From positions 33,130 through 97,129 of the IMG/VR virus record IMGVR_UViG_3300014325_000010: 64,000 nucleotides of DNA. One strand, given 5' to 3'. Of the stretch, positions 57,614 through 57,905 are shown one piece after another. The notes beneath the pieces were generated by a model that did not search any database, was not told the origin of the DNA, and worked only from the letters and a program-made list of their open reading frames with translations. Origin of the DNA: a virus. Within the stretch, counting starts at the first letter, position 1, and each line of letters opens with the position of its first letter. The position numbers and the translations under genes were made by a program.

Positions 57614-57905
57614 CGGTTTTACGGTCTCTATTTAGTATACCTTCTATCTAGTAAACCAGTATACTAGGTAAACCAGTAAATAAAGCCAGTAAAATAAAAA
57701 AGGCACGCCGGGTAAAAGTTTAAAGATATCGTTTTTCCGGTTTACTAGGTTTACCGGTGACAAAAATCCACACTGGGTTGGACCGGTGTCCGTTTTTGGA
57801 CGGTAAACCGCCGGTTTACCCGGTTTACCCAATCCGACCGGTAAACCACTGGGGAGCTCGGTAAACCGCTTTTTTATCAACATTTACCGGTTTACCGGTT
57901 TACTT
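57614..57905. repeat. Iteron array: about 14 copies of CCGGTTTACC / GGTAAACCG in both orientations
   Basis: Examples: ccggtttactaggtttaccggtg, cggtaaaccgccggtttacccggtttaccc, catttaccggtttaccggtttactt. Confidence 0.8.

Follow-up and report, generated by a model that had tools for sequence, protein, structure and literature searches.

A bidirectional array of short boxes near a VapE-type primase-helicase gene is a probable iteron-type replication origin of an uncultured phage

What is the role of a dense cluster of short repeated boxes lying next to the replication gene of an uncultured virus? This question was raised by a 64,000-nt stretch of DNA (the whole of it is called the window here), which is a part of a 112,421-nt metagenomic contig (ENA ERZ27252489). 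The minus strand of the window is filled with long ORFs between 2.8 and 48 kb, at least 10 kb from the boxes, and these were taken to be structural genes. The region spanning 48.4–57.0 kb contains small and mostly unannotated ORFs on the plus strand, and a 2.3-kb repeat-rich non-coding region (57.0–59.3 kb) precedes the gene of a primase-helicase. The megablast and blastn searches of 56800–59400 against INPHARED phages, an exact-peptide scan of IMG/VR and a GTDB scan with the close-group alignment gave no match, and tblastn of the helicase returned only relatives with identity of 37% or less. The Rfam scan of 56500–59500 gave chance miRNA-level matches only. Elsewhere in the window, the stretch 49000–52400, and especially 50130–50420, has 50–59% GC, is without convincing genes and has a composition sharply unlike the rest of the phage; it holds a tandem repeat (nine copies of CGCAACG-containing units) that gives rise to repetitive ORFs on both strands.

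The boxes were counted over the full window. The octamer GGTTTACC was found nine times as an exact match, all inside 57586–57896, compared with an average of 1.26 (highest count 5) in 100 dinucleotide-preserving shuffles, which upheld the motif enrichment that the initial annotation had named as a check. Likewise, 12 of the 18 copies of the heptamer GGTTTAC were located in 57586–57903, and the other six are scattered singles in the remaining 63.6 kb (0.09 per kb). Three one-mismatch boxes (GGTATAC at 57561 and 57635, and GTTTTAC at 57616) and degenerate boxes (GGATATAC at 57573, CAGTATAC at 57658, CAGTAAAT at 57677, CAGTAAAA at 57688, GGGTAAAAG at 57711 and CATTTACC at 57881) bring the total to about 16–20, and with these variants the array spans 57561–57904 (344 bp). 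The box consensus in 57540–57910 is YGGTTTACY in both orientations, and the tandem neighbours are spaced by 8, 9, 9 and 10 bp.

These counts agreed in part with the initial annotation. Its figure of about 14 boxes was fair because 12 exact boxes and 3–9 variants were counted, and the occurrence of the box in both orientations was borne out by the box positions. The start had been placed at 57614 and was corrected to 57561 or 57586, the earlier limit thus lacking one exact box and two variants at the left. Two arrangements that had been described as head-to-head were also reassigned: ccggtttactaggtttaccgg is a head-to-tail pair and cggtaaaccgccggtttacccggtttaccc consists of one inverted box and two direct boxes. 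The sole ORF over the array (57644–57883, minus strand, 79 aa) reads like translated boxes and has neither a Pfam match nor a counterpart in the relatives, so it was reasonable to call the region gene-free.

The orientations follow the order + + (+), T-rich, − − − −, A-rich, + +, hairpin, − + +, − −, (+) + +. The parts of the array, and the promoter and gene that lie beyond it, were as follows:

57561–57593, plus strand: left box group, with GGTATAC at 57561–57567, GGATATAC at 57573–57580 and GGTTTACC at 57586–57593.
57603–57625, plus strand: conserved non-box core atcttggtgcccggttttacgg (family consensus ATCTTCGGTGCCCGTTTTTATTACC), which includes the degenerate box CGGTTTTAC.
57626–57650, no strand: T-rich/AT-rich stretch between converging box groups, a candidate unwinding element.
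57635–57695, minus strand: minus-oriented boxes, GGTATAC at 57635, GGTTTAC at 57651 and 57668, and GTATAC at 57659.
57677 and 57688, minus strand: degenerate CCAGTAAA copies in the minus group.
57675–57737, no strand: A-rich/AT-rich spacer between diverging box groups.
57738–57755, plus strand: tandem pair CCGGTTTAC-TAGGTTTACC, 9 bp apart.
57770–57800, plus strand: short GC-rich hairpin and then a T run, terminator-like, a window-specific insertion within the array.
57801–57829, no single strand: triplet CGGTAAACCG-CCGGTTTAC-CCGGTTTACC, one inverted box and then two direct boxes.
57839–57868, minus strand: two boxes, CGGTAAACCAC and CGGTAAACCGC, 20 bp apart.
57881–57904, plus strand: right-hand boxes CATTTACC, CGGTTTACC and CGGTTTACT, 8 bp apart.
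58931–58975, plus strand: promoter-like site of the primase-helicase, tcattttc..CTTTTCT-N17-TATACT, and then a leader that is conserved in the related contig L121.
59328–61649, plus strand: Prim-Pol and VapE/SaPI-Rep-type helicase of 773 aa, the proposed reader of the boxes.

The AT content of 57626–57650 is 63–70%, against 56% for the window mean, and the A-rich spacer includes 57670–57699, the 30 nt with the highest AT content in the region (77%). A scan for promoters and terminators gave results not above the shuffled expectation.

The identity of the neighbouring gene gave a first indication of what the array could be. The 773-aa protein matched Prim-Pol (E 5e-7) and the Pfam VapE-like helicase (E 1.6e-61), and a profile built from 34 relatives matched one structure in the PDB, that of SaPI1 Rep1 with DNA (7pds_A, E 3.5e-56), over the ATPase region. 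A putative winged-helix-like C-terminal domain lies at about residues 655–725 (about 61290–61502). The model of residues 636–773 (pLDDT 86) has the layout helix, helix, beta-hairpin; Rep1 was the best structural match of this domain, and a Foldseek search of the C-terminal model against the PDB gave no significant match. SaPI Reps are self-loading helicase-initiators (PMC9371898, PMC7581432), and their C-terminal winged helix binds iterons of 5–6 nt (PMC9371898; the same is given for SaPI in PMC7581432). The SaPI iterons number 6–12 and are located directly downstream of rep, the origin is AT-rich at its centre, where two or more iterons per side point in opposite directions, and in SaPI5 the pri and rep genes are fused (PMC9371898). 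Besides the homologous helicase, two features of this type were found in the window, namely at least six copies of one short box within a few hundred bp (12 exact GGTTTAC and the variants) and opposed boxes, at least two per side, around AT-rich DNA, with modest AT in the window (63–77%). Another, an array immediately downstream of the helicase gene, was found in the loci L410, L032, L071 and L079 and not in the window, where no comparable array occurs in 61650–61987 and the boxes lie 1.4 kb upstream of the helicase start codon. In that downstream part, 61899–61990 carries a promoter-like TTTACT-N17-TATACT, the sole match in the window, and then a hairpin whose 16-bp stem is perfect (ccaactagacgaccg...cggtcgtctagttgg); this promoter and hairpin precede the gene of a WGR-like protein, and the relatives have an equal layout before the helicase gene.

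Conservation of the array was monitored in the relatives that were obtained by protein search, P0002 (contig L121), P0003 (L122) and P0004 (L123), with helicase identity of 70%, 55% and 53%, respectively. A positionally homologous box array was present before the helicase gene in all three, 0.26–0.4 kb from its start codon. The box of L122 is that of the window; it has 20 GTTTAC/GTAAAC cores, and its first five box groups are orthologous in position with similar spacings. Three to four GTAAACC boxes occupy the place matching 57635–57695, the boxes at 7397 and 7404 are equivalent to the pair at 57738–57755, the segment 7444–7470 is near-identical to the triplet at 57801–57829, and the boxes at 7494 and 7513 are orthologous to the pair at 57839–57868. 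The box of L123 is GGTATAC (15 GTATAC copies) and that of L121 is GGTATAG/GGTATAC. The sequence between the boxes could be aligned (window ggatatacttcgaggtttaccgcgaaa..atcttggtgcccgg with L123 gggtatacttcgaggtatacgcgaaa..atcttcggtgcccg), which indicated that the boxes were altered in place by one base. Several GTATAC copies are present at the left end of the window array, and the reader protein may therefore accept GGTWTAS. The one-base differences among GGTTTAC, GGTATAC and GGTATAG would represent either drift within GGTWTAS or the start of a divergence in origin specificity. The AT-rich segments hold conserved positions among the relatives, and the stretch homologous to 57626–57650 has 83% AT in L122 and 80% in L121. 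The hairpin at 57770–57800 corresponds to a gap of the relatives in their alignment with the window.

In L121–L123, 80–110 nt separate the end of the array from a promoter-like TTTACT-N18-TATAMT, which is conserved, as is a leader. The orthologous helicase promoter and leader in the window span 58931–59327, and about 1 kb is inserted between the array and this promoter. The boxes as −35 or promoter elements were considered and rejected because they differ between relatives while the −35 TTTACT stays constant. The inserted 1 kb contains a 37-aa ORF and hairpin-rich repeats. The ORF (57993–58106) lies just past the array, starts behind a strong GGAGG ribosome-binding site and was predicted by the gene finder of the depositor as well; a degenerate version of the helicase promoter region (tcattttc...TATGCT, 57907–57950) lies before it. 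The repeats consist of a 76-nt element present in five copies in 58143–59319, whose identity to the reference copy is 63–86%. A perfect palindrome with 12-bp arms (TGTGATTTGGAT..ATCCAAATCACA) is found in four of these copies, most copies are then followed by a second hairpin (GGGTCACCCAnTAACAC..GTGTTAnTGG), and the last copy adjoins the helicase start codon. This block sits in the segment missing from L121–L123. The initial annotation had cited the neighbouring hairpin elements in favour of its origin candidate; no tie between them and the origin was found, the hairpins being a window-specific insertion.

The array could be followed beyond the close relatives. In L410, whose helicase is 45% identical, 10 GGTTTAC(A) and two GGTATAC boxes start 17 nt past the helicase stop, and in L204 (45%) about 11 CGTTTAC/GTATAC boxes lie 500–770 nt past the stop, beyond a small inserted ORF. 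Both arrays align to that of the window as reverse complements and have in common with it two boxes, the core ATCTTCGGTGCCCGTTTTTATTACC (57603–57625 of the window) and the T-rich stretch. The two boxes of the left group beside the core align column for column with L122, L123 and L121 and with the reverse complements of L410 and L204. In the alignment of these six loci, the core columns TG.CCG..TTTA are invariant, so that the core is kept even where helicase identity falls to 45%, whichever way the module faces relative to the gene. This shared arrangement showed that the module is homologous across the clade and that the orientation of the helicase gene differs; the box module goes with the helicase clade even where its position relative to the gene changes. 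The relatives with about 40% identity have other boxes directly past the stop, such as CCGTGACAT (L128), GTGTAAC (L127), CGCTAAC (L126), GAGTAAGA (L129) and others, often as 9-bp tandems and in both orientations. In L089, the first 420 nt past the VapE helicase stop carry CCAGTAAA(C/G) and GGGTTTACTGGGTTTAC boxes, which resemble the degenerate GCCAGTAAA copies at 57677–57695 of the window; because the L089 array uses similar boxes, it is suggested that these copies may be functional sites and not decay products.

The association was then measured across the family using 127 loci from IMG/VR and from GTDB genomes, each covering the helicase C-terminus and 800 nt or more beyond it, the GTDB part being prophages of Acidobacteriota, Alphaproteobacteria and Planctomycetota. 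In 80 of the 127 loci, the 7-mer cluster of highest density in the 7–12-kb locus was centred 0–800 nt past the helicase stop. After dereplication at 60% helicase identity, this was the case in 22 of the 41 clusters compared with about four expected by position alone (binomial p 2e-12), and more than 25 different boxes were involved. In the reciprocal direction, 120 viral contigs were fetched from IMG/VR solely by the box pair GGTTTAC-N1-3-GGTTTAC, and six of them encode a VapE-type helicase. Four of these contigs (L032/L103, L071 and L079), which represent at least three phages, have 6–8 (T)GGTTTACC boxes starting 9–19 nt past the VapE helicase stop and flanking long AT-rich DNA. Most of the box-pair matches were noise or collagen-like coding repeats (e.g. 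L047).

We consider the array to be probably the replication origin of the phage, an iteron origin of the kind on which self-loading Rep helicases act, with a probability of about 0.7. The initial annotation had linked its origin candidate to the downstream primase-helicase, and this link was strengthened by the homology of the enzyme to SaPI Rep and by the box module that accompanies the helicase clade; the adjacent short-box arrays in about half of the clusters and the recovery of VapE helicases by a search with boxes alone gave it further support. Some features of the locus count against it. The position of the array relative to the gene departs from the SaPI rule, the AT-richness in the window is modest, and there is no DnaA box, the best candidates being one-mismatch 9-mers at 57874 and 59270. 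At about 58 kb the GC skew turns from positive to negative, the reverse of the classical origin signature, although the direction of transcription is the same on the two sides; the skew is not informative and, if anything, contrary.

As a mechanism for an origin of this kind, the winged-helix-like C-terminal domain of the helicase would bind the boxes. The spacing of 8–10 bp would allow several hexamer subunits to dock on one face of the DNA, the C-terminal domains of a hexamer docking on box groups one helical turn apart. Two hexamers might then assemble on opposed box groups (+ +, − − −, + +) and melt the AT-rich DNA between the groups (57626–57650 and 57675–57737), after which the Prim-Pol domain would prime synthesis. 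Binding may, in addition, autoregulate the gene in those relatives whose array adjoins the helicase promoter.

The same location permits a regulatory reading, in which the boxes are operators of a regulator, be it the helicase as autorepressor or some other protein, at the promoter of the replication gene and not a start site. Many iteron systems combine an origin with autoregulatory sites, and the end of the array just before the conserved helicase promoter in L121, L122 and L123 is as expected for operators. However, about 1 kb separates the two in the window, the array is past the stop codon and away from the promoter in L410, in L204 and in the majority of the wider family, and 12–20 sites around AT-rich DNA far exceed the needs of an operator, which makes this reading quite unlikely. 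A partition site (a parS-like centromere) or a terminase recognition (pac) site would be a still more distant function. Dense short repeats in both orientations are known at some centromeres and at P1-type pac sites, but parS sites are palindromes of about 16 bp and the boxes are asymmetric 7–9-mers. Furthermore, no ParA or ParB family match was found in the 17 neighbouring plus-strand ORFs of 48.4–63.5 kb (most of which had no match at all), the large ORFs are on the other strand at a distance, and the gene with which the arrays are associated across dozens of loci is that of the helicase; we regard this function as extremely unlikely.

Which protein reads the boxes is a related question. The C-terminal domain of the helicase itself is favoured because of the homology to SaPI Rep and is, by this analogy, the best candidate for the putative box binder. 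No segment of the helicase tracked box identity, the window protein being closer throughout to P0002, which has another box, than to P0003, which has the same box. Among the family-wide pairs, same-box pairs showed slightly higher identity of the C-terminal domain at matched ATPase identity, as a weak trend only, and the helicases of L032, L071 and L079 have dissimilar C-terminal sequences with the same box GGTTTACC. This want of clear covariation favours the alternative that the array is an origin or other cis site read by another phage protein, as does the poor discrimination of origins by SaPI1 Rep1 in vitro, for which another specificity factor might exist (PMC9371898). The two proteins that the initial annotation had proposed as binders are a WGR-like protein of 187 aa (61987–62550) and a zinc-ribbon protein (56808–57005, CxxC...PQMCPxCKSRxW), the latter named together with its paralogues. 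The WGR-like protein has its gene close to that of the helicase in four loci with GTWTAS boxes (the window, L121, L122 and L204). However, its identity (79%, 47% and 39%) follows phylogeny and not box type, it was not found at other array-carrying loci, and it tracks the clade no better than the helicase does. The zinc-ribbon gene co-occurs with a different, 36-nt periodic array and is absent within 8–10 kb of the L122 array, which has the box of the window. Neither protein has a recognised DNA-binding family match, and no neighbouring protein was unusually similar between the window and L122. Both are thus less well supported as binders than the helicase, and a reader other than the helicase appears very unlikely.

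The proposed origin was compared with the known systems. In the satellite phage P4, the alpha protein combines primase, helicase and a C-terminal winged-helix origin-binding domain in one polypeptide and recognises the 8-bp iteron TGTTCACC, present in several copies and in both orientations; P4 needs a second cis element, crr, and its primase type differs from that of the window. The likeness lies in the single polypeptide with primase and helicase and in the short bidirectional iterons. A second, crr-like box cluster was searched for and was absent from the 64-kb window and 8 kb of flank of the 112-kb contig, the copies outside the array being singles. In the archaeal plasmid pRN1, the cis element is a stem-loop and not an iteron array. 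The ORF904 protein of pRN1 resembles the window enzyme in having Prim-Pol and a superfamily 3 helicase in one protein with an essential cis element beside the gene, the cis-acting replication region being downstream of it (PMC4234260, PMC2777425). The Cch2 protein of SCCmec is a D5/VapE-type helicase that binds short repeats downstream of its own gene, and a double-hexamer origin with priming by a partner primase has been proposed there, as in the proposal made here, where binding is predicted; it differs in having three 5-nt iterons and separate primase and helicase (PMC7581432), whereas the window has a larger bidirectional array and a fused enzyme. The iteron plasmids (RepA, pi and TrfA) share repeated initiator sites beside an AT-rich unwinding element and the setting of origin specificity by the repeat, but they have direct repeats of 17–22 bp, dedicated winged-helix Reps that recruit host DnaB and usually DnaA boxes (PMC4980987). 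Neither such direct repeats nor DnaA boxes were found in the window; its boxes are 7–9 bp long in both orientations, and the proposed initiator is the helicase itself.

For the SaPI origins and their Rep/PriRep self-loading helicases (Ubeda 2007 as cited in PMC9371898, PMC7581432; structures 7PDS and 7OLA), the shared features are the homologous helicase, with a fused primase as in SaPI5 PriRep5, the short, numerous and lineage-specific boxes in both orientations around AT-rich DNA, and the array immediately 3′ of the gene in most relatives of the window helicase. The differences are the box length (7–9 bp instead of 5–6), the copy number (12–20 instead of 6–12), the location of the array 5′ of the gene in the window lineage, the conserved 20-nt non-box core, the predicted nature of the box binding here, and the carrier, which is a phage contig of about 112 kb from an uncultured host instead of a staphylococcal island. 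The array would be a known kind of origin in a new example, and the mechanism is not new.

The more unusual object of the region is a second array, of 36-nt units, which is strictly periodic and in one orientation with the core pattern ATCGAGRCA-N-AGWWCCA. Each unit consists of ATCGAGRCA, about 8–11 variable nt, an AGWWCCA-like sequence and about 8 variable nt. Its occurrences were:

Window, 57195–57487: nine or more units, with variants at 58268–58700.
L121, 472–1720: 25 units.
L123, 1894–2650: 18 units.
L352, 2329–3990: about 46 units, near-perfect, GATCGAGACA-N8-GAGAGAACCA-N8.

The array was absent from L122 and L204. It is neither coding nor CRISPR-like, has no Rfam match, and a literature search with the unit sequences returned only primers and Cas9 sequences. 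L352 is an unrelated high-GC viral contig in which an IS110-C-like helix-hairpin-helix protein follows the array, and no homologue of this protein was found in the window lineage; a VapE-type primase-helicase is present within a few kb of the array in both lineages. Several (A)TAGGTAA(A) boxes are located directly past the zinc-ribbon stop (window 56998–57095, L121 425–455 and L123 1765–1850), and the zinc-ribbon gene and these boxes are conserved in exactly the 36-nt-array loci, namely the window, L121 and L123, whereas neither was found close to L122 or L204. In L352, 10 copies of the 20-bp near-palindrome ATGACCGCCTGGTGGTCGCG with a period of about 32 nt occupy 660–988, 1.4 kb upstream of its 36-nt array, and such arrays also occur in L321 (2100–2420) and L339 (10612–10996); this is likely another protein-binding array. 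It is conceivable, though unlikely, that 57.0–59.3 kb is a composite replication-control locus in which the GGTTTACC origin works together with the 36-nt array as a previously undescribed class of cis-element. The latter could serve, for example, as a platform for helicase or primase loading or for copy control, or as a centromere-like array.

These findings offer a concrete and testable pair of origin and initiator for an uncultured phage lineage of about 112 kb whose early genes are nearly all unannotated. The relatives, whose boxes differ by one base while the scaffold is conserved, form a natural series for the evolution of origin specificity, and the concerted one-base changes of the boxes could conceivably, though this is unlikely, reflect a switching of origin specificity that blocks the use of the initiator by co-infecting relatives. 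At the level of the family, it is suggested that the SaPI arrangement of a self-loading Rep helicase with adjacent short iterons extends far beyond the staphylococcal islands, to many phages and to prophages of Acidobacteriota, Alphaproteobacteria and Planctomycetota with dozens of box specificities, and this offers a simple rule by which origins may be predicted beside VapE-type helicases.
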